Source: an uncultured Saprospiraceae bacterium
GTDB lineage: Bacteria; Actinomycetota; Acidimicrobiia; Spongiisociales; UBA5794
DNA: 58,959 nt
Assembly (NCBI GenBank): GCA_964195515.1
Contig: CAXMQO010000036.1
Span: 1 to 58,959, forward strand
Reading direction: 5' to 3'
The notes under the pieces were generated by a model. That model did no database searches, was not told where the DNA came from, and worked only from the letters and a program-made list of their open reading frames with translations. Every line of letters begins with the position of its first letter. Positions within the stretch are counted from its first letter, which is position 1. Below are positions 3,209 through 46,772 of the stretch, one piece after another. Position numbers and translations under genes: made by a program.

Positions 3209-4090
3209 ATGGCTATGGGTGGGGCAGCGTGGGCCCTCTTTGCCGGCGTGTCCTTCGGCATCTTCCAGGCCGTCAACCGACGGGCCAACCAACTCATCGA
3301 TCCCTATCGGACCACGTTCGCCCTTCTCTTGGTCGCGGTCGTCGGGCTCGGCATCTTCTCCGCCGCTACCCAGGACCTCGCGCTGCTCTCGTCGGCGCCG
3401 GTCTTCGCCCTCCTCGCCTTCGGGGCCGCCGGGGTGATCCACTTCTTCTTCGGCTGGACGTTCCTCAGCCTTAGCCAGCAGCGAATCGGGGCGTCCAACA
3501 CCGGTGTGGTCACGGCTGCTACACCTCTGATCGGCAGCCTGCTGGCTGTGCTTGTGCTCGACGAGAAGTTGGGTCCTGTTGCGCTGGTGGCGATCGCCCT
3601 TGTATCCGCAGGTGTGATCCTGATCGCACGTCGAGCAAGTGGCGGTGGCGATCAACGGCTCACCTATCCGTGGTTTGCCCTCGCTGCCTCGCTGTCGTGG
3701 GGTACCAGTCCGCTGTTCATCCGCTGGGGTCTGGAAGGCTTGTCGAGCCCAGTGATCGGCGTCACGATCGGCCTGGCCGCCGCAACCGCGCTGTACGCCG
3801 TCGTGCTGGCCTCGGGAAGGGTACCAACCACATCAGGAGTGCCGCCTGAGGTACGCCGCTGGATTCTGATCGGTGGGATCCTCGTAGCGGTGGCGATTGC
3901 AGCACAGTGGACAGCGCTCGACCTCGTCGAAGTCAATGTTGTCGTGACACTGCAGCAAGCGGCAACCCCTGTTGTTGTGCTCATAGCCCCGTTCATCGTC
4001 GGGACGGTGATCGAGCGGTGGACATGGCGTCTCATTCTCGGCATGGTGGCCGTCATCGCCGGCTCGACCATGGTGATCTGGGCCAACTGA
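3209..4090 (+). CDS. DMT/EamA family transporter
   Basis: About 10 hydrophobic segments in two repeats, IGASNTG and VLDEKLG EamA-like motifs; GGAG upstream of the ATG. Confidence 0.85.
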   Translation: MAMGGAAWALFAGVSFGIFQAVNRRANQLIDPYRTTFALLLVAVVGLGIFSAATQDLALLSSAPVFALLAFGAAGVIHFFFGWTFLSLSQQRIGASNTGVVTAATPLIGSLLAVLVLDEKLGPVALVAIALVSAGVILIARRASGGGDQRLTYPWFALAASLSWGTSPLFIRWGLEGLSSPVIGVTIGLAAATALYAVVLASGRVPTTSGVPPEVRRWILIGGILVAVAIAAQWTALDLVEVNVVVTLQQAATPVVVLIAPFIVGTVIERWTWRLILGMVAVIAGSTMVIWAN

Positions 4091-28346: not shown

Positions 28347-30101
28347 CTAGAGGATCTCGACGAGGCCGTTGGTGCCGTCGACCCGCAGGCGATCGCCGGT
28401 CTTGATCTCGCGGGTGGCGACACCGGTGCCGGTGACACCGGGGATACCAAACTCACGAGCCATGACGGCCGGATGCGCAACCATGCCCCCGGCGTCGCAC
28501 ACGATTCCGCCGATGATGGCGAACAGCGTGGTCCATGCAGGGTTGGTCATCTGGCAGACCAGAATGTCGCCCGGCTGCACCTCATCAAACTCTGCCGGCG
28601 AGGAAACGACCTTGGCGATGCCCTCGATGACGCCGGGGGAGACGCCGAGACCTTCGACCCTGCCCGCGGTCTCCGTGTCGAACCCGAGCTTCTCGGGGAA
28701 GCCCCAGAGGTTCAGGTACGGGAACTGCATCTGGTCTTCGGTCGCCGTGCCGATGAAGTCCGGCGGACGGATCTTCTCATGCTTGGCACGAGTCGCACGC
28801 CGCTCGGCGACGATCGCCTTTGCGTCGAGCAGACTCGGATCACCCATCAAGTAGCGGAGCTCGTTGTACTTGAGATAGATGACGTCATCCGGCTCATTGA
28901 GCAGACCCATCTCGACCAGCTTCCGACCGATGCAGATCAGCACCACACGAGTGTGCTGGTGCGTGCCCTGATCGATGTAGAAATGGTGGTCCGGGGTGAG
29001 CGGAGCCATCTGCAAGTTGATCTCGTTGGCTGCCTTGAGTGCCTCGAGCTCGTCTCCTTCTTCGATCCCCTCGAGCAGCTCCTCGGCCGCAGCCTTGATG
29101 TCTACCTCGAGATGGGCAACGATCGGACGGTGGTCATAGTCGGAGTCCAGATAGCCCTTGAGCATGTCGAGCACCGGCTCCGGTGTCTCGAACCGTGACG
29201 GGTAGATGAACTCGTGGCTCCACACGGCGTGCCAGCCGAACTCGCGCTGATAGGCCTTCAGGCCCCCGGCGATGAACTCACGGCCGCTCTCGGTCGATTC
29301 GAGAGCTGCGAGGATGTCGGCGCCCTTCTCATTGGCGAATGCCGCCATGAGGTCGTCGTCTGCCTTGATCTCGTCCTTCAGGCCGACGAGGACCTCGATC
29401 GCGTCCCAGTTGCGGTCGGCGGCCGAGTTCTGCAGACGGCCGAGGATCTCCTCGTGCGTCGGCGTGATCTTGTCCTCTCCGCCGAGGGCTGCGCCAAGAG
29501 TGCCGCGGAGTGCCAGTGTCGATGACAACTGCGAGAAGTTGAGCATCCAGTGGATCTTCCAGTGGCGATCGACGATGTCGATTGCGTCTTCGAGGATCGT
29601 GGCCCACTCCATGAGCGGGATGTTCTCGTAGTCGTCGATCTTCTCTTCGAGATAGGCCAGATTTCCTGCCATCTCCGGGACCAGGCGTTCGGCCCACCAC
29701 GTCGGGAAGTTCGCGCCGTATGTCGGAAGGACTGCACCCAGGTAGGCGCCGATCTTGGCGCCATATTCGGGGTCATCCTTCGGAACACGCGGAAAGTAGA
29801 CGTTGCCGAACTCCGTTGCCGGAACGGCCATGTCCGGATCGCACGGAACCGCAGCGGTGTACAGGTACCCGTTGACGACCTTCTTGATCCAGTCAGACGC
29901 GAACGGCGTGCCGAACCTGCGGAACATGTGATCGCAGGTGTTCACCCAGTTGGCGATGTCGTCATACATCGGCGACACGGGGCGTGGGCAGTGCAGATCG
30001 TCGTAGACCCAGAACAGCTTCTTCTCTTGCTCCGATTCCCACTCAACGGGGAAGCTCTCGTCTCCGAAGAACTCCGCTATGACCTTGCTGGTATCTGCCA
30101 T
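28347..30101 (-). CDS. PEP-utilising enzyme: substrate-binding plus phosphohistidine swivel domain, no ATP-grasp (phenylphosphate synthase A/RPH-like)
   Basis: FWVYDDLHCPRP N-terminal motif; C-terminal MTNPAW, GGMVAHPAVMAREFGIP, RVDGTNG; GGAG before ATG 30101. Confidence 0.82.
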   Translation of the reverse strand: MADTSKVIAEFFGDESFPVEWESEQEKKLFWVYDDLHCPRPVSPMYDDIANWVNTCDHMFRRFGTPFASDWIKKVVNGYLYTAAVPCDPDMAVPATEFGNVYFPRVPKDDPEYGAKIGAYLGAVLPTYGANFPTWWAERLVPEMAGNLAYLEEKIDDYENIPLMEWATILEDAIDIVDRHWKIHWMLNFSQLSSTLALRGTLGAALGGEDKITPTHEEILGRLQNSAADRNWDAIEVLVGLKDEIKADDDLMAAFANEKGADILAALESTESGREFIAGGLKAYQREFGWHAVWSHEFIYPSRFETPEPVLDMLKGYLDSDYDHRPIVAHLEVDIKAAAEELLEGIEEGDELEALKAANEINLQMAPLTPDHHFYIDQGTHQHTRVVLICIGRKLVEMGLLNEPDDVIYLKYNELRYLMGDPSLLDAKAIVAERRATRAKHEKIRPPDFIGTATEDQMQFPYLNLWGFPEKLGFDTETAGRVEGLGVSPGVIEGIAKVVSSPAEFDEVQPGDILVCQMTNPAWTTLFAIIGGIVCDAGGMVAHPAVMAREFGIPGVTGTGVATREIKTGDRLRVDGTNGLVEIL

Positions 30102-30462: not shown

Positions 30463-30477
30463 TCGATAATCGATTAC
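30463..30477. promoter_or_regulatory. Repeated operator TCGATAATCGATTAC
   Basis: Just downstream of the -10 box; 18 nt (ATCCTCGATAATCGATTA) identical to the site at 40144. Confidence 0.72.
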
Positions 30478-34975: not shown

Positions 34976-35005
34976 TTGACGGGGCCCAAACACAAAACAT
35001 ATAAT
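34976..35005 (+). promoter_or_regulatory. Near-consensus sigma-70 promoter for ABC operon 2
   Basis: TTGACG-N18-TATAAT in a roughly 65% GC background. Confidence 0.72.
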
Positions 35006-35012
35006 CGATTAT
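35001..35012. promoter_or_regulatory. Operator ATAATCGATTAT overlapping the -10 box
   Basis: Perfect 12-bp palindrome, same core as 30463, 40148, 46758. Confidence 0.72.
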
Positions 35013-40147: not shown

Positions 40148-40162
40148 TCGATAATCGATTAT
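40148..40162. promoter_or_regulatory. Operator TCGATAATCGATTAT
   Basis: 70 nt upstream of the AhpD-PTP-PPDK-Tm-1 gene run. Confidence 0.72.
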
Positions 40163-40232
40163 GCTGCCCGAGTCGCTCTCGTCGAGGCTCAAATCCACCT
40201 CGGGAGACGCAGCCACAAGCAAAGGAGAACTC

Positions 40233-40850
40233 ATGTCCCGCCTCGAAGCGCTGCCCCTCGAAGAGGTTCCCGGCATGGAGGAGATCGCAGAACGGTACGA
40301 ACGGGTCTTCGGCTTCGTTCCCAACGGTGTGCGCATCATGGCTCGGCGGCCAGCGATCGTTGAGGGATTTCTCCACCTGCGCGGCGCCGTCTTCGATCCG
40401 GCGACGAGCGAGGTACCGCCCGAGCTGAAGGGCCTGATCGGGCATATCGCCAGCAAGACCGCAGGCTGCCGGTACTGCCAGGCCCACGCGATCTACGGTG
40501 CGGACCGCGCCGGAACGGACCGGGCTCGTCTCGACGAACTGTGGGAGTTCGAGACCAGCGATCTCTTCGACGAGTCCGAACGGGTCGCGTTGCGCTTCGC
40601 CGTCTCGGCTGCCGCCTCACCAAGCGGGGTCACCGACGAAGACTTCGTGCGACTGAACGAGTACTGGGACGACGGACAGATCGTCGAGATCCTCGCCGTC
40701 GTCGCGCTCTACGGATTCCTCAACCGGTGGAACGACTCACTCGCCACCACCCTCGAAGAGCCGTCCCAGACGGTCACCGAAGAGGTCCTCGGTTCGAAGG
40801 GCTGGGAAGTCGGCAAGCATCGTCGCAATGAGGCGGCGGACGTTGACTGA
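40233..40850 (+). CDS. Carboxymuconolactone decarboxylase/AhpD-like peroxidase
   Basis: GFVPN, AGCRYCQAH (CxxC), SERVAL, QIVEIL; AAGGAG before ATG 40233. Confidence 0.85.
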   Translation: MSRLEALPLEEVPGMEEIAERYERVFGFVPNGVRIMARRPAIVEGFLHLRGAVFDPATSEVPPELKGLIGHIASKTAGCRYCQAHAIYGADRAGTDRARLDELWEFETSDLFDESERVALRFAVSAAASPSGVTDEDFVRLNEYWDDGQIVEILAVVALYGFLNRWNDSLATTLEEPSQTVTEEVLGSKGWEVGKHRRNEAADVD

Positions 40851-41640
40851 AGCATCCTCCCCCACCGCGACCGTGGTGGTCGACGGAGCGCCGAACTTCC
40901 GCGATGTCGGCGGGTACGAGACGGCCGATGGTCGCCGCGTCCGCTACGGCAAGCTGTTCCGCTCAGGGATGCTGGTCGGCGTCTCCGACGATGGCGTCGC
41001 AACACTTGACGCCCTCGGAATCCGAACGGTCGTCGATCTGCGAACCCAGGTCGAGGTCGATGCGCTCGGGCCCGATCGCCTGCCGGAAGGCACGCGCGTC
41101 GTACAGATCCGGATCCCCAGCGCCGGGGCCGACCCGATGGTCGTCGAGGCACTCAAGACCGGCCACTTCCCCTACCTCCCCGATCTCGTGTCTGCAAACC
41201 GGGCCTACATCACCGATGACGCCGTCCAGTTCGGCGACCTCTTCGCGCTGCTCACCGACTCGGCCAACCTCCCCGTCATCATCCATTGCCTCGGGGGGAA
41301 GGACCGGACCGGCGTGAGCATCGCTCTGCTGCTCACGATCCTCGGCGTCCCATGGCCGATCGTGCGACAGGACTACCTCCTCTCAAACGTCTACTTCGCG
41401 AACTCGGCCGGTGACCAACCAGACTCCCTGAACCGGGTCATGGAGCGAAGCCTCGGTCATGCCCCCGACTTCGGTGACGAGGAGTCAAGGAGGGAATTCT
41501 TTGTGCTTCGTCCCGAGTACATCGACGTCGTGCTCGACGAGACCACGAAGAACGGGCGTACCTTTGACGAGTTCGTCCGGGACGAACTGAGACTCTCGGC
41601 CGCAAACGTGGAACGACTCCGCGCGGATTTTCTGGAGTGA
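40828..41640 (+). CDS. Tyrosine-protein phosphatase family (PtpB/Y_phosphatase3-like)
   Basis: NFRDVGG, LFRSG, VDLRT, HCLGGKDRTG (CX5R), DYLLSN. Confidence 0.9.
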   Translation: MRRRTLTEASSPTATVVVDGAPNFRDVGGYETADGRRVRYGKLFRSGMLVGVSDDGVATLDALGIRTVVDLRTQVEVDALGPDRLPEGTRVVQIRIPSAGADPMVVEALKTGHFPYLPDLVSANRAYITDDAVQFGDLFALLTDSANLPVIIHCLGGKDRTGVSIALLLTILGVPWPIVRQDYLLSNVYFANSAGDQPDSLNRVMERSLGHAPDFGDEESRREFFVLRPEYIDVVLDETTKNGRTFDEFVRDELRLSAANVERLRADFLE

Positions 41641-41703: not shown

Positions 41704-43863
41704 ATGACCTACGTCTATGCATTCGACCACCAGCACGAGGGCTCGTTCGACGAGACCAAGGCACTCGTCGGCGGCAAAGGGGCGAACCTCGCGGTGATGA
41801 CGAGCGAGTTGGGTCTTCCGGTCCCCCCCGGGTTCACGATTTCAACAGAGGCGTGCCGGTTGTACCTCGCCGAGGGCTGGCCGCCCGGCCTCGACACCGA
41901 ACTGCGCGACCACATCGGTCGTGTCGAGGCGGCCGTCGGACGGCGATTCGGAGATCCCTCTAATCCGCTGCTCGTCAGCGTCCGCTCCGGAGCATCGGTC
42001 TCGATGCCGGGCATGATGGACACGATCCTCAACCTCGGTATCAACGACGCCACCGAGCAAGGACTGGTCACGGTCTCAGGGGATCCTGAGTTCGTTGCGG
42101 CGTGTCGCGGCCGCTTCGTCTCGACGTACCGCGAGGTCGTCGGTGTCGCCGAGGTTCCGGTGGACCCCTTCGACCAGCTTCGTGGGGCAGTCGAGGCGGT
42201 CTTCCGCTCCTGGAATGGCGATCGTGCCCGTGCCTACCGCACCCACGAGAGGATTCCCGATGACCTCGGCACCGGGGTCACGGTCCAGGCGATGGTGTTC
42301 GGCAACAGCGGTCCGAACTCGGCGACGGGAGTCGTGTTCACTCGCAACCCCGCAACCGGCGAACGGGTCCTCTACGGGGACGTCCTCTTCAACGCACAGG
42401 GCGAAGACGTCGTGGCAGGAACTCACGCAACACAACCCATCGCCTACCTCGACGAACGGGAACCGGTGATCGCAGAGGAACTCAAACGTTATGCCGACCA
42501 CCTCGAACGTCACTACGTGGACGTGTGCGACATCGAGTTCACGATCGAAGCAGGTCGGCTGTGGATGCTGCAGACGCGGATCGGCAAACGCTGCCCGGAG
42601 GCGGCCCTCCGTATCGCCAAGGAGATGGCCGAGGATCCCGACTTCCCACTCTCGCGTCGCGAAGCCGTGATCCGAGTCGCGGATCATCTCGCGTCGCCTC
42701 CCACCGCGGCTACGAAGCGCTCGGCGGAGGCGGCGCCCATCGTCACGGGTCTCGGTGCTTCCCCAGGGCTCGTCGCCGGAGAGATCGTAACAACACCCAA
42801 TGCCGCCGTGGAAGCCGTCGCGAAGGGCAGGTCGGTCATTCTCGTCCGCAGGGAGACCTCCCCCGACGACGTTCATGGCATGGCGGCCGCCGCGGGCATC
42901 CTCACGGCGACCGGGGGCCTCGCCTCCCACGCCGCCGTCGTCGCCCGGGGTTGGGGAATCCCGGCGGTAGTGGGCGCCGCAGCGATGGAGATCGGAGAAG
43001 CGACGGTGGCGATCGGCGACCACGTTCTCGTCGTTGGCGATGCCTTGACCATCGACGGCGGCACGGGCGAAGTCTTCCTCGGTGAGATCGTCGGAGAAGC
43101 AGTCGTCGTGCCCGAAGCCGAGCAGCTTCTCTCCTGGGCGGACGAGTTGGGGATCGAAATCGTCCCGATCGATGAGCAGGAGACAGAACCGACGGACGCC
43201 AACGACACCGGGAACAGTGGAGGTCAAACCATGTGCAGTAGCTCCGCAACCGTCGAGGCGATGGTGCGCCTCCTCGGCATCAAAGGATTCGCGACTTCAG
43301 ACGCGGCCGCGGCCGCTCTCCTGACGACGGAGGAGGACGCCACCGGGATCCTCCATCAGATGGCTGCAGACGGCCTGGTCACGACGATGGGTGCCATGTT
43401 CAGCCTCACCGACGACGGAAAGGCGGTCGCGGGAGAGCTCCTCGCCGTAGACCAGGAAGCATGGGGTGCGGACGATGCCCTGGCGGCGCTCGATAGCTTC
43501 CTCGCTCTGGACGGCCGCATCAAACAAATCGTTACGGACTGGCAGATGCGAGAAGTCGACGGCCTCCCAGTGCTCAACGACCATGCCGACTCGGACTACG
43601 ACGCAGCGGTCCTCACGGACCTCGAAGCGCTCCACGTCGACGCGGACGCGTGGCTCAATCGACTGCGTGGAGAGCTACCTCGGCTGGGCGCATACGCCGC
43701 GAGACTCGGTCGGGCGGCGGGATTCATAGCCGAGGGCGACTACGCCTACATCGCTTCCCCCCGACTGGACAGCTACCACAACGTCTGGTTCGAACTCCAC
43801 GAGGATCTCATTCTGCTCGCCGGTCGCACGCGGGAGGACGAGGTCGCGTCGGGCCGCGCCTGA
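41704..43863 (+). CDS. Truncated pyruvate phosphate dikinase (ATP-grasp + His swivel) fused to an Rv1126c-like C-terminal domain
   Basis: GGKGANL, LLVSVRSGA, PGMMDTILNLG, QGEDVVAG, GGLASHAAVVARG; no PEP-binding TIM barrel; C-terminus IVTDWQ...DSYHNVWFELHEDL. Confidence 0.8.
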   Translation: MTYVYAFDHQHEGSFDETKALVGGKGANLAVMTSELGLPVPPGFTISTEACRLYLAEGWPPGLDTELRDHIGRVEAAVGRRFGDPSNPLLVSVRSGASVSMPGMMDTILNLGINDATEQGLVTVSGDPEFVAACRGRFVSTYREVVGVAEVPVDPFDQLRGAVEAVFRSWNGDRARAYRTHERIPDDLGTGVTVQAMVFGNSGPNSATGVVFTRNPATGERVLYGDVLFNAQGEDVVAGTHATQPIAYLDEREPVIAEELKRYADHLERHYVDVCDIEFTIEAGRLWMLQTRIGKRCPEAALRIAKEMAEDPDFPLSRREAVIRVADHLASPPTAATKRSAEAAPIVTGLGASPGLVAGEIVTTPNAAVEAVAKGRSVILVRRETSPDDVHGMAAAAGILTATGGLASHAAVVARGWGIPAVVGAAAMEIGEATVAIGDHVLVVGDALTIDGGTGEVFLGEIVGEAVVVPEAEQLLSWADELGIEIVPIDEQETEPTDANDTGNSGGQTMCSSSATVEAMVRLLGIKGFATSDAAAAALLTTEEDATGILHQMAADGLVTTMGAMFSLTDDGKAVAGELLAVDQEAWGADDALAALDSFLALDGRIKQIVTDWQMREVDGLPVLNDHADSDYDAAVLTDLEALHVDADAWLNRLRGELPRLGAYAARLGRAAGFIAEGDYAYIASPRLDSYHNVWFELHEDLILLAGRTREDEVASGRA

Positions 43864-43904: not shown

Positions 43905-45188
43905 ATGGCCACAGCGGTACTCCTCGGAACACTCGACACGAAGGGAGGCGAGTATGCCTTCCTCCGAGATCGCGTAATCGAAGCCGGCTGCGATGTCGTG
44001 ATGATCAACGCCGGCGTGCTCGGTGACCCCGAGTACCCGGTTGCCTTCGGTCGGACCGACGTCGCTCATGAGGCAGGGGCCGACATCGAGACCCTCGTGG
44101 CAGCCGGAGACCGCGGCGCCGCCGTCACGGCTATGGCCGAAGGGGCGACCGCTCTTGTCCTTCGCCTGTGTGAGGAAGGCCGGATCCACGGCGTCCTCGG
44201 TATCGGCGGTTCCGGCGGTTCCTCGATCATCAGCCAGGCCATGCGGAAACTCCCGATCGGCTTCCCCAAACTCCTCGTGTCAACGATGGGTGCGGGCGAC
44301 GTAAGCGCCTTCGTCGGCACGTCGGACATCGCCATGATGTACTCGGTGGTCGACATCGCCGGTATCAACGCGGTCTCGTCGAGCATCCTCGGCAACGCCG
44401 CCGCGGGCCTGGCAGGCATGGCCAAAGCCTTCGAGGTCCGTGATCCGTCCGTCGACGGCCGTCCGCTCATCGGTGCGACGATGTATGGAACCACCACGCC
44501 GTGCGTCAATGCCGCCCGTGCCGTGCTGCAGGAGTTGGGATACGAAGTCCTGGTCTTCCACGCGACCGGGACCGGCGGTCGTTCGATGGAAGCCCTCATG
44601 AAGAGCGGCTACATCACTGCGGCACTCGACGTTACGACCACCGAACTCACCGACGAGATCGCTGGCGGAACGCTCACGGCCGGTCCTGACCGTCTGGAGG
44701 CGGCCGGCGATCTCGGTCTTCCGCAGGTGGTCTCGATCGGCGCAACCGACCAGATCACGTTCACTCCCCCGAGTGCCGTGCCCACCGAATACTGGGACCG
44801 CAACTGCTACGCCCACAACCCCAGCATCACTCTCGTGCGCACCAATGCAGAAGAGAGCGACGAATTGGGTCGTATGCTCGCCGAGAAGCTCAACCGGGCC
44901 ACCGGACCGGTCTCGCTCTTCGTTCCACTCCGCGGCGCCTCGTCCTATGCAGTCGCCGGTGCCGTCTTCCACGACCCGATCGCCGATGAAGCCCTGGTCT
45001 CGAGCCTCCGCACGCATCTCGACTCGACGGTGGAGTTGATCGAGATGGACACCGACATCAACGATCCCATCTTCGCGGAAGCCATGGCGCGTCGCCTCGA
45101 TCAGCACTACCGGACATGGTCGAAGGCTCGCTCCAACTCGGCCGACGTCGGGCAGTCCACGTCACCAGCGTCTCCACCGACTGGGTAG
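43905..45188 (+). CDS. Tm-1-like ATP-binding domain protein (UPF0261)
   Basis: LLGTLDTKG, GGSGG, LPIGFPKLLVST, VVDIAGIN, FHATGTGG, INDPIFA. Confidence 0.88.
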   Translation: MATAVLLGTLDTKGGEYAFLRDRVIEAGCDVVMINAGVLGDPEYPVAFGRTDVAHEAGADIETLVAAGDRGAAVTAMAEGATALVLRLCEEGRIHGVLGIGGSGGSSIISQAMRKLPIGFPKLLVSTMGAGDVSAFVGTSDIAMMYSVVDIAGINAVSSSILGNAAAGLAGMAKAFEVRDPSVDGRPLIGATMYGTTTPCVNAARAVLQELGYEVLVFHATGTGGRSMEALMKSGYITAALDVTTTELTDEIAGGTLTAGPDRLEAAGDLGLPQVVSIGATDQITFTPPSAVPTEYWDRNCYAHNPSITLVRTNAEESDELGRMLAEKLNRATGPVSLFVPLRGASSYAVAGAVFHDPIADEALVSSLRTHLDSTVELIEMDTDINDPIFAEAMARRLDQHYRTWSKARSNSADVGQSTSPASPPTG

Positions 45189-45198
45189 CCGCCGGACG

Positions 45199-46713
45199 TT
45201 AGGTCCGCGAAATGGTTCCTTCCCACGTGTCGACCCGCTCGCCCTTCATGGCTTCCTCGTCGAACCAGAAACTCGTGACAGCCTTCGTCTCGGTGTAGAA
45301 CATGACTCCATCGCGTCCCATGACGTGGAGGTCACCGAAGAAGCTGTTCTTGTGCCCGCTGAACGGGAACACCGAGATGGGAACCGGGATGCCAACGTTG
45401 ACGCCGACCATGCCGGCGTCGATGCGGCGAGCGAACTCACGTGCGTAGTAGCCGCTCTGGGTGAAGATCGAAGCACCGTTGGCAAACTCGCTGGAGTTGA
45501 TGAGTTCAACACCCTCATTGAAGTCGGCGACCCGCTTCACATACAAGACGGGGCCGAACACCTCTTCATTGCCGCACGACATCTCCGGCTTGACGTGGTC
45601 GAACACGGTCGGGCCCATGAAGAAGCCGCCTTCATGGCCTTCGACCTCGACTGTCCGCCCGTCGAGCACAGCCACGGCACCCTCGTCGATCGACTTGTCG
45701 ATCCAGCCGTTGACAAACGCGAAGTGCTCGGCATTGACGAGTGGGCCCATCTCGGTCGACTCATCGTACGCGGGGCCGATCTTGAGGTCCTTCGCGAGTT
45801 CAGTGATCGTTGCGACGAGTTCATCTGCGATCGATTCCTCGACGGCGATGGCGGGGAGCGCCATGCAGCGCTCGCCGGCGCATCCGAACGCCGAGTTGAT
45901 GATCCGCTGTGCGGTTGCTCGAATCGGAGCGTCGGCGAGCACGAGCGCATGGTTCTTTGCCTCGGTGAGTGCCTGCACCCGCTTGCCGTTCGCCGAAGCA
46001 GTGGAGTAGATGTGCTTACCAACGGCCGTGGATCCGACGAAGCTCACGCCTTTGACCTTCGGATGCACGAGCAGTCGTTCGGCCTCGTGTCGGGAGCAGG
46101 TCACCAGATTGAAGACACCGGGCGGCAACCCGGCCTCTTCCAGCAGTTCGGCCATCCGCATCGCCGTTTGCGGCACATACGAGGCAGCCTTGAGAACGAA
46201 GGTGTTGCCGGTCGTGACGGCAAGCGGCATCATCCATCCCATCGGGATCATTGCCGGGAAGTTCCAGGGCACGATCCCGGCGAAGACGCCCAGCGGCTCA
46301 CGGAACGTTACCGTGTCGAAGCCGGTGGCAACATTCATGAGGGAGTCACCCATCATCGTGACCGGCGCCGCACACGCGAGTTCGACAACCTCGATCGCCT
46401 TCAGCACATCGCCTCGAGCCTCGGTGTAGCTCTTCCCCATCTCGGTTGCGAGCAGCATTGACAGGTCGTGCAGATTGTCTTCGAGCAGGCCCTTGAGACG
46501 GAACATCACCTGAACGCGCTTGGTGATCGGAGTGTCGCGCCACCCGGGGAACGCTGCGGCTGCAGCCTCGACCGCTGCATCGACTTCCTCCGCCGTGCAG
46601 CGGGGGGCTTCGGCCATCACTTCGCCGGTGCTGCTGTTGGTGATCTCGTAGTAGACACCGCTCTCGGTGTCCTTCCACTCGCCTGCTACCAGATACTTCA
46701 GACGTTTCGGCAT
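45199..46713 (-). CDS. mmsA: CoA-acylating (methyl)malonate-semialdehyde dehydrogenase
   Basis: PWNFPAMIP, FVGST, AKNH, AFGCAGERCMA, EEVFGP, FSGHKNSFFGDLH. Confidence 0.92.
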   Translation of the reverse strand: MPKRLKYLVAGEWKDTESGVYYEITNSSTGEVMAEAPRCTAEEVDAAVEAAAAAFPGWRDTPITKRVQVMFRLKGLLEDNLHDLSMLLATEMGKSYTEARGDVLKAIEVVELACAAPVTMMGDSLMNVATGFDTVTFREPLGVFAGIVPWNFPAMIPMGWMMPLAVTTGNTFVLKAASYVPQTAMRMAELLEEAGLPPGVFNLVTCSRHEAERLLVHPKVKGVSFVGSTAVGKHIYSTASANGKRVQALTEAKNHALVLADAPIRATAQRIINSAFGCAGERCMALPAIAVEESIADELVATITELAKDLKIGPAYDESTEMGPLVNAEHFAFVNGWIDKSIDEGAVAVLDGRTVEVEGHEGGFFMGPTVFDHVKPEMSCGNEEVFGPVLYVKRVADFNEGVELINSSEFANGASIFTQSGYYAREFARRIDAGMVGVNVGIPVPISVFPFSGHKNSFFGDLHVMGRDGVMFYTETKAVTSFWFDEEAMKGERVDTWEGTISRT

Positions 46714-46757: not shown

Positions 46758-46772
46758 ATAATCGATTATCGA
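46758..46772. promoter_or_regulatory. Operator (minus-strand TCGATAATCGATTAT)
   Basis: Between divergent mmsA and MFS genes, 45 nt upstream of mmsA. Confidence 0.72.

Follow-up and report, generated by a model that had tools for sequence, protein, structure and literature searches.

A barrel-less pyruvate, phosphate dikinase-type kinase fused to an Rv1126c-family domain: a predicted single-chain form of the VadK/Rv1126c pair

What does a pyruvate, phosphate dikinase (PPDK) become when another domain takes the place of its catalytic barrel, and where would its phosphohistidine then deliver the phosphoryl group? The question is raised by a gene at 41704-43863 on the forward strand of contig CAXMQO010000036.1 (GenBank assembly GCA_964195515.1), from an uncultured bacterium placed by GTDB in the Acidimicrobiia. 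We analyzed the whole contig of 58,959 nucleotides, hereafter the window. The gene joins the ATP-grasp and swivel-histidine domains of a PPDK to a C-terminal domain of about 200 residues, here called the partner domain, in a single open reading frame. Judged from its sequence, it almost certainly unites in a single chain what Mycobacterium tuberculosis makes as two proteins, VadK and Rv1126c, and we regard this identity as secure. The parts of the gene are as follows.

41704-43863, + strand: fused gene, a barrel-less PPDK-type kinase followed by an Rv1126c-family domain, open reading frame of 719 amino acids
41689-41694, + strand: Shine-Dalgarno sequence GGGGAG, read from the sequence, 9 nt before the ATG of the fused gene
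41704-42738, + strand: ATP-grasp nucleotide-binding domain, residues 1-345 (PF01326, 7e-50; Foldseek match to 1kbl; ATP-site motifs)
42739-43161, + strand: phospho-histidine swivel domain, residues 346-486 (PF00391, 8e-21, over residues 377-455; Foldseek match to 2fm4, the PPDK phosphoryl carrier domain)
43162-43242, + strand: linker, residues 487-513, disordered, acidic and hypervariable, with the lineage-specific insertion GNSGGQ (predicted local distance difference test, pLDDT; alignment columns in 121 relatives)
43246-43413, + strand: winged helix-turn-helix, MarR/DtxR-like, residues 515-570 (PDB profile match 8pvt/MntR; Foldseek match 7kym_B; charge analysis)
43414-43860, + strand: helical bundle, residues 571-719, with invariant polar residues (alignments, AlphaFold2 model, profile searches)

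The N-terminus of the protein, MTYVYAFDH, is conserved among relatives, and the ATP-site motifs GGKGANL, SVRSGA, SMPGMMDT, DIEFTIE and MLQTR are all intact. The catalytic histidine, His409 (nt 42928-42930), lies in the GGLASHAAV motif of the swivel domain. No Pfam match to the PEP-utilizers_C barrel (PF02896) was found in the 719-residue protein. The matches to PF01326 and PF00391 without PF02896 confirm the initial annotation of this stretch, which had described ATP-grasp and phospho-histidine domains lacking the phosphoenolpyruvate (PEP)/pyruvate barrel. It had also described an acidic linker followed by some 200 residues ending in a given sequence. The linker, VPIDEQETEPTDANDTGNSGGQT, and a tail of ~205 residues are present, and the word "ending" holds only approximately because DSYHNVWFELHEDL is located 17 residues from the C-terminus.

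An AlphaFold2 model of the protein, built on an alignment of 60 sequences, has a mean pLDDT of 84.9. Residues 1-486 of the model adopt the fold of the PPDK nucleotide-binding and swivel module, residues 488-513 are disordered (pLDDT ~24), and beyond the disordered linker a folded module stands where PPDK has its barrel. This module consists of a winged helix (residues 515-570) and a bundle (residues 571-719) made of long helices and one hairpin. The Foldseek list for the full model is dominated by PPDK matches, including the PPDK of Clostridium symbiosum (1kbl; E 8e-44, 42% identity, TM-score 0.58), with weaker matches to PEP synthase, rifampin phosphotransferase and HpeI.

The fused gene is, to near-certainty, a barrel-less PPDK paralogue rather than the PPDK of this organism. 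Its first 486 residues share fold and motifs with the canonical enzyme (EC 2.7.9.1), whereas an unrelated domain replaces the TIM barrel, and the protein scores 542.8 bits against the PPDK equivalog model TIGR01828, below the cut-off of 843. A complete PPDK of 944 amino acids is encoded on another contig of the same genome (C61, 34041-35669; L013, 454-3285, - strand) and carries the barrel (PF02896, 1.4e-80). Because the genome has this complete canonical enzyme, the fused paralogue must have a different task. The absent barrel and the second, complete gene together agree with the initial suggestion that proteins of this kind are probably not gluconeogenic PPDKs. The short "PRK05878" model NF004531 assigns the fused protein 487.6 bits against a cut-off of 456. 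This model does not discriminate: 310 of 401 Actinomycetota genomes pass the cut-off, mostly with canonical enzymes of 870-1000 amino acids. Canonical PPDKs score 519-583 bits and true VadKs more than 600.

In M. tuberculosis, VadK (Rv1127c, formerly PpdK) has Rv1126c as its operonic partner (Pascoe et al., EMBO Rep 2026, PMC13400623). ATP/Mg-dependent autophosphorylation of the VadK swivel histidine has been demonstrated biochemically, and the kinase was proposed to act as an ATP sensor. M. tuberculosis needs the kinase for virulence, and it has been put forward as a drug target; the methylcitrate-cycle genes are not transcriptionally regulated by it. Co-expression of Rv1126c improves the solubility of VadK, and separating the two proteins takes 2 M NaCl. 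The paper mentions neither fused forms nor a role for Rv1126c (PMC13400623).

We linked the fused protein to this pair through Mycobacterium sp. L093, where a barrel-less kinase gene is followed by a gene for 201 amino acids whose ATG lies 8 nt before the kinase stop codon. The published rv1127c primers encode the peptides AVFASWNSP and GAAS(H>A)AAVVSREL (PMC13400623), and since the L093 kinase carries these peptides, as AVFASWNSP and GATSHAAVVSREL, we take it to be a VadK orthologue. An exact search of our genome-contig collection with the native rv1127c quantitative PCR primer gave 0 matches. Residues 510-719 of the fused protein are 42.6% identical to the 201-residue product over 202 amino acids (E 1.4e-40), and the kinase halves of the two systems are 43.8% identical. 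The Rv1126c-like C-terminal domain announced in the initial annotation is thus of the same family as the small gene beside mycobacterial barrel-less PPDKs. All residues of the Rv1126c-family signature WQ..NDHxDxxYD..R..DSYHxVWFELHE are present in the fused protein. An exhaustive search with the partner domain recovered 1,434 representative clusters at 50% identity, which include proteins of ~700-800 amino acids matched at their C-termini and many of ~200-215 amino acids. The signature DSYHxVWFELH is near-universal in this family, with DSYHTVWFELH its commonest form, and the motif DSYHTVWFELHE, given for Rv1126c in the initial annotation, proved to be the commonest variant.

The likeness to VadK and Rv1126c is that of a barrel-less PPDK derivative with ATP-grasp and a catalytic swivel histidine, associated with a protein of ~200 amino acids of the same winged-helix-plus-bundle family. 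The two proteins of mycobacteria are a single polypeptide here. The kinase half of the fusion also differs from VadK in keeping the canonical motif VVARGWGIP instead of VVSREL and in scoring 488-490 bits with NF004531, against more than 600 for true VadKs. The setting differs as well, with PrpD undetected in this genome and other neighbours around the gene.

The fusion is widespread. The partner domain occurs in 12 of 41 related genomes, always within one open frame of 718-805 amino acids, and at least 120 clusters (90% identity) of 707-743 amino acids match the protein along its entire length (100%), with identities of 62-93%. Since independent assemblies show the same uninterrupted fusion, an assembly artefact is excluded. 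Wherever the source names the clusters with the fused architecture, the name is "pyruvate, phosphate dikinase". We classified 80 named loci by tblastn for the arrangement of kinase and partner. The two are fused in about 45 Nocardia species, in Acidimicrobiia and in a member of the Chloroflexota. The kinase directly precedes the partner in Mycobacterium L093, and five mycobacterial loci have the order kinase, GntR, acyl-CoA dehydrogenase, partner. The partner comes before the kinase in Gordonia and Marinibaculum, the kinase is nearby on the opposite strand in Nocardioides and Haloechinothrix, and 20 Acidimicrobiales-type loci have no kinase within 4 kb. This range of fused, adjacent, reversed and nearby arrangements bears out the Rosetta-stone argument of the initial annotation. 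Within a sample of 401 genomes of the phylum the partner domain was found in 37, of which ~5-6 look fused. All six genomes of that sample with an NF004531 match above 600 bits carry it, adjacent to the kinase or nearby in most of the six (adjacent in G287, G223, G129 and G410).

Two candidate standalone partner proteins (P0108 and P0044, 200-210 amino acids, starting at the equivalent of Met510) were rejected as frameshifted fusions. In two ENA assemblies, L011 (at ~3855-3860) and L012 (at ~3790-3860), 1-nt indels in conserved kinase sequence split the fused gene, and from these indels gene callers produce the false "standalone" partners of 200-210 amino acids found in protein databases. Kinase and partner share a strand in L037, L055, L057, L073 and L089, which belong to Mycobacterium and relatives, but genes for a GntR/FCD regulator and an acyl-CoA dehydrogenase separate them, and an enoyl-CoA hydratase-like open reading frame follows.

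On the evidence of the trees, the fusion is old and recurrent. The partner-domain tree requires five changes of fusion state, at least three of them on well-supported branches. In this tree the fused protein falls within an all-fused clade (Shimodaira-Hasegawa-like approximate likelihood-ratio test, SH-aLRT, 96) together with Acidimicrobiia and a Chloroflexota sequence. This clade is separate from the fused clade of Nocardia, which nests among unfused Mycobacteriales. The "recent fusion" suggested in the initial annotation does not stand: members of the clade come from both Acidimicrobiia and Chloroflexota and are 41-61% identical, so that the fusion must be considered old. We also built a tree of the kinase half from 14 canonical PPDKs and 23 barrel-less kinases in motif-checked frames. 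Canonical and barrel-less kinases part at one branch (SH-aLRT 85), so that a single loss of the barrel would suffice, and a shared ancestry with mycobacterial VadK, to the exclusion of canonical PPDKs, receives moderate support. The clade of the present protein is the deepest-branching barrel-less group and the one nearest the canonical PPDKs, which accounts for its modest NF004531 score.

The initial annotation further pointed to a possible internal start at the domain boundary:

43219-43233, + strand: GGAGG-N7-ATG (Met510), by all appearances a chance feature (linker columns, shuffles)

The sequence is present exactly as described: GGAGG occupies 43219-43223, and after a spacing of 7 nt comes the in-frame ATG at 43231. 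The proposal built on it, a retained start or the production of two proteins, finds no support in the alignments. Most of the 121 fused relatives have A, V, P, E, S or a gap at the position of Met510, and the GGAGG is spelled by the Ser-Gly-Gly codons of GNSGGQ, the lineage-specific insertion in the hypervariable linker. The pattern GGAGG-N5-9-ATG is found 16 times in the window, compared with 13.1 ± 3.4 in shuffled sequences. When aligned, the standalone partner of L093 begins within ~5 residues of Met510, and this proximity is the sole point in favour of a functional start. We infer that the internal GGAGG-ATG is fortuitous and that one protein of 719 amino acids is made.

The conserved part of the partner domain is its bundle and not its winged helix. 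Eight residues (K607, W613, Q614, N625, H627, D629, D633 and R660) are invariant in 81 of 81 sequences, orphan copies of the partner gene included, as are D689, S690, Y691, H692, W695, F696, E697, H699, E700 and R710; residues 689-696 belonged to the pattern used to fish for the sequences, and the remaining invariant residues did not. Sequence profiles of Pfam, NCBIfam and PDB sequences gave no match to the bundle. Of the C-terminal part, only the winged helix matches known structures: about 60 residues resemble MntR, IdeR and MarR by PDB profile (8pvt/MntR, E 4e-4) and by fold (7kym_B in Foldseek, root-mean-square deviation 1.6 Å over 68 columns), and the MarR-like wing motif RLTxxG is retained. 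Unlike MarR and DtxR-MntR regulators, the partner family is acidic (mean net charge -9.8, isoelectric point ~5), including its winged helix, and its presumed recognition helix is unconserved with a mean charge of -1.75, which argues against a classical DNA-binding regulator. We found neither a basic, conserved recognition helix nor a full-length match to either family, and all matches of the winged helix were below threshold.

The fused gene belongs to a co-directional run of four genes, CMD/AhpD-like, PtpB-type phosphatase, fusion and UPF0261, which is found again in L096, a relative at 78% identity. The neighbouring features of the window are these.

40151-40162, no strand: the palindrome ATAATCGATTAT, one of its 4 copies in the window, placed at the head of the fusion run
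40161-40850, + strand: CMD/AhpD-like gene, first of the co-directional run (Pfam)
40828-41640, + strand: PtpB-type CX5R phosphatase (Y_phosphatase3; HCLGGKDRTG), directly upstream of the fused gene (Pfam, motif)
43905-45188, + strand: UPF0261 (Tm-1-like) gene, 41 nt downstream of the fused gene (Pfam)
45199-46713, - strand: CoA-acylating methylmalonate-semialdehyde dehydrogenase (TIGR01722, 570 bits), adjoining the run
28347-30101, - strand: swivel-histidine protein without ATP-grasp (PRK08296/Rph/PigC-like), in a molybdenum (Mo)-hydroxylase operon (profile matches)

The PtpB-type phosphatase family stands beside the kinase/partner system in four lineages: every Nocardia locus has it overlapping the fused gene at its 3' end, and it is divergent beside the partner in Nocardioides and Haloechinothrix. 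UPF0261 recurs at the fused locus of the Chloroflexota (L090). More distant fused genes directly follow a xanthine dehydrogenase-type Mo-hydroxylase trio, a cyclase and a zinc-dependent alcohol dehydrogenase; in the window the Mo-hydroxylase/cyclase operons lie 6-20 kb upstream of the fusion. The palindrome ATAATCGATTAT occurs at 30466-30477, 35001-35012, 40151-40162 and 46758-46769, one copy having 1 mismatch (4 observed, 0 expected). These positions are the heads of two Mo-hydroxylase operons, the head of the fusion run, and the divergent region between the methylmalonate-semialdehyde dehydrogenase and a major facilitator superfamily gene, and the units that bear them look like one putative regulon. 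A 65%-identical orthologue of the swivel-histidine protein without ATP-grasp comes immediately after the fused gene in L018 (4867-6606, Acidimicrobiia), which suggests that the two phospho-histidine proteins work together, and related swivel-histidine proteins border the system also in Gordonia, Mycobacterium and Nocardia. PrpD (PF03972) was not found in this genome, which is 83.5% complete, and for that reason the methylcitrate-cycle function known from mycobacteria was set aside and not transferred. The adjoining methylmalonate-semialdehyde dehydrogenase is a producer of propionyl- or acetyl-CoA, and in Nocardia the divergent neighbour is an acyl-CoA ligase of the FadD3 family.

How would such a protein work? 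We propose that His409 receives a phosphoryl group from ATP through the ATP-grasp domain, as in M. tuberculosis VadK, and that the swivel domain would then carry this group to the C-terminal module at the barrel position. There it could be passed on at the polar cluster formed by H627, D629, D633, R660, D689, H692, E697, H699 and E700. The receiver might be one of the three invariant histidines, in a relay, or else a bound ligand or metal-activated substrate, and the neighbouring PtpB-type phosphatase may reset the product. The system in this genome would probably serve the Mo-hydroxylase/cyclase catabolic regulon and not the methylcitrate cycle. That the partner domain is a second station for the swivel histidine in place of the barrel, as a relay or a catalytic site, is a reading for which we see an even chance; it is favoured because the domain occupies the barrel position behind a flexible linker, has an active-site-like cluster, and has repeatedly been fused to or placed beside the kinase. 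The acceptor or output role that the initial annotation had assigned to the C-terminal domain is plausible. Swapped third modules are known from PEP-synthase-type dikinases: rifampin phosphotransferase (5hv1), PpsABC (phenylphosphate synthase), HpeHI (9goj) and PigC/RedH likewise couple an ATP-grasp and swivel-histidine engine to an acceptor module other than the barrel, sometimes over several subunits. The likeness is one of working mode and not of membership; these proteins are among the weaker Foldseek and NCBIfam matches. Their domain order and acceptor domains are unrelated to those of the fusion, whose acceptor-like module contains a winged helix. A broader proposal, tentative and less likely than not, is that VadK-type kinases are not "truncated" at all. 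With an Rv1126c-family module added, they would be full phosphotransferases of three modules and of a type not seen before. The phospho-acceptor or catalytic site, in place of the PEP/pyruvate barrel, would be a domain of winged helix and helical bundle that has three invariant histidines and an acidic cluster and may depend on a metal. Joined by the ATP-grasp-less swivel protein and the PtpB-type phosphatase, this would amount to a widespread, undescribed ATP-driven phospho-histidine system on catabolic operons (Mo-hydroxylase/cyclase here, cholesterol- or propionate-linked in Mycobacteriales).

Several observations weigh against the proposed second station. The VadK interactors given in the results sections of the published work are PrpC and PrpD, not Rv1126c (PMC13400623). 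The predicted template modelling score of the AlphaFold2 model is only 0.64. The assignment of the C-terminal domain to the Rv1126c family draws on synteny in other mycobacteria and on the VadK paper. The canonical controls in the kinase tree are PPDKs of Actinomycetota only, and the support for a single loss is moderate. Partner genes without a kinase within 4 kb are found in L020, L026, L044-46, L051, L054, L059 and others (Acidimicrobiales). Of eight such genomes tested, six lack a barrel-less kinase and have canonical PPDKs alone or no PPDK. The orphan copies nevertheless show the same invariance of the polar cluster; hence the partner domain has a function in its own right, not necessarily tied to a VadK-type donor. 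The orphan conservation suits an alternative that we rate as rather unlikely but serious, in which the C-terminal module is only regulatory, sensing or scaffolding. It would gate autophosphorylation or pick targets, perhaps by binding a metabolite or metal at the cluster, and the phosphoryl group of His409 would go directly to other proteins, be it metabolic enzymes, as proposed for PrpC and PrpD, or the ATP-grasp-less swivel protein. The published interactors and the proposed ATP sensing by VadK (PMC13400623) agree with this alternative, as do the weak DtxR/MntR-like resemblance, which fits a metal- or ligand-sensing regulator, and the recurrence of the ATP-grasp-less swivel protein nearby. 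However, the domain fills the exact topological slot of the catalytic barrel, three invariant histidines together with acidic residues suggest a reaction centre rather than an allosteric pocket, and repeated independent fusions are typical of proteins acting in consecutive steps.

The winged helix also brings to mind a DNA-binding transcription factor of the MarR/DtxR type, the fusion then being a one-polypeptide kinase-regulator of the local operons. Its resemblance to MntR, IdeR and MarR, the retained wing motif, database names that include "MarR family transcriptional regulator" and the putative palindromic operator ATAATCGATTAT at the head of the run all speak for such a role, which we nevertheless consider clearly unlikely given the acidic family with its unconserved, net negative recognition helix and the conservation sitting in the bundle. 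Moreover, VadK has no transcriptional effect on the methylcitrate-cycle genes (PMC13400623), and GntR, LysR and other regulators are available locally. It is very improbable that the single chain is illusory, either as an assembly or frameshift artefact or through a restart at Met510. The GGAGG before the in-frame ATG at the domain boundary, the L093 partner start close to Met510 and the frameshifted copies in L011 and L012 would fit such an explanation, but the frame is uninterrupted in the 12 related genomes, the at least 120 clusters and about 45 Nocardia genomes, the internal start has the marks of chance, and the splits seen in L011 and L012 are themselves artefacts. Scarcely credible, finally, is a functional PPDK with its PEP/pyruvate barrel supplied in trans. 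Although no barrel-less group is nearer to canonical PPDKs than that of the kinase half, which shares 42% identity with the C. symbiosum enzyme, the only barrel found belongs to the complete 944-residue PPDK, the barrel slot is taken by another conserved domain, and for M. tuberculosis neither PPDK flux nor a separate barrel gene is reported (PMC13400623).

For the virulence kinase VadK, Rv1126c has so far counted as no more than a help to solubility. Natural fusions that arose at least twice, with the domain at the former barrel position, suggest that the Rv1126c family supplies the absent third module. The name "pyruvate, phosphate dikinase" is wrongly attached to hundreds of database entries, and NF004531 fails to separate VadK-type proteins from true PPDKs.

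Further variants of the partner domain were seen outside these arrangements. In L052 (2144-4597, Solirubrobacteraceae) it is apparently fused to a swivel-only protein without ATP-grasp, a third kind of fusion. P0242, a metagenome representative of 1049 amino acids, combines two PEP-utilizers swivel domains and a PPDK_N domain with a C-terminal partner domain (residues 850-1048). The orphan partner genes often lie beside AMP-binding acyl-CoA ligases.

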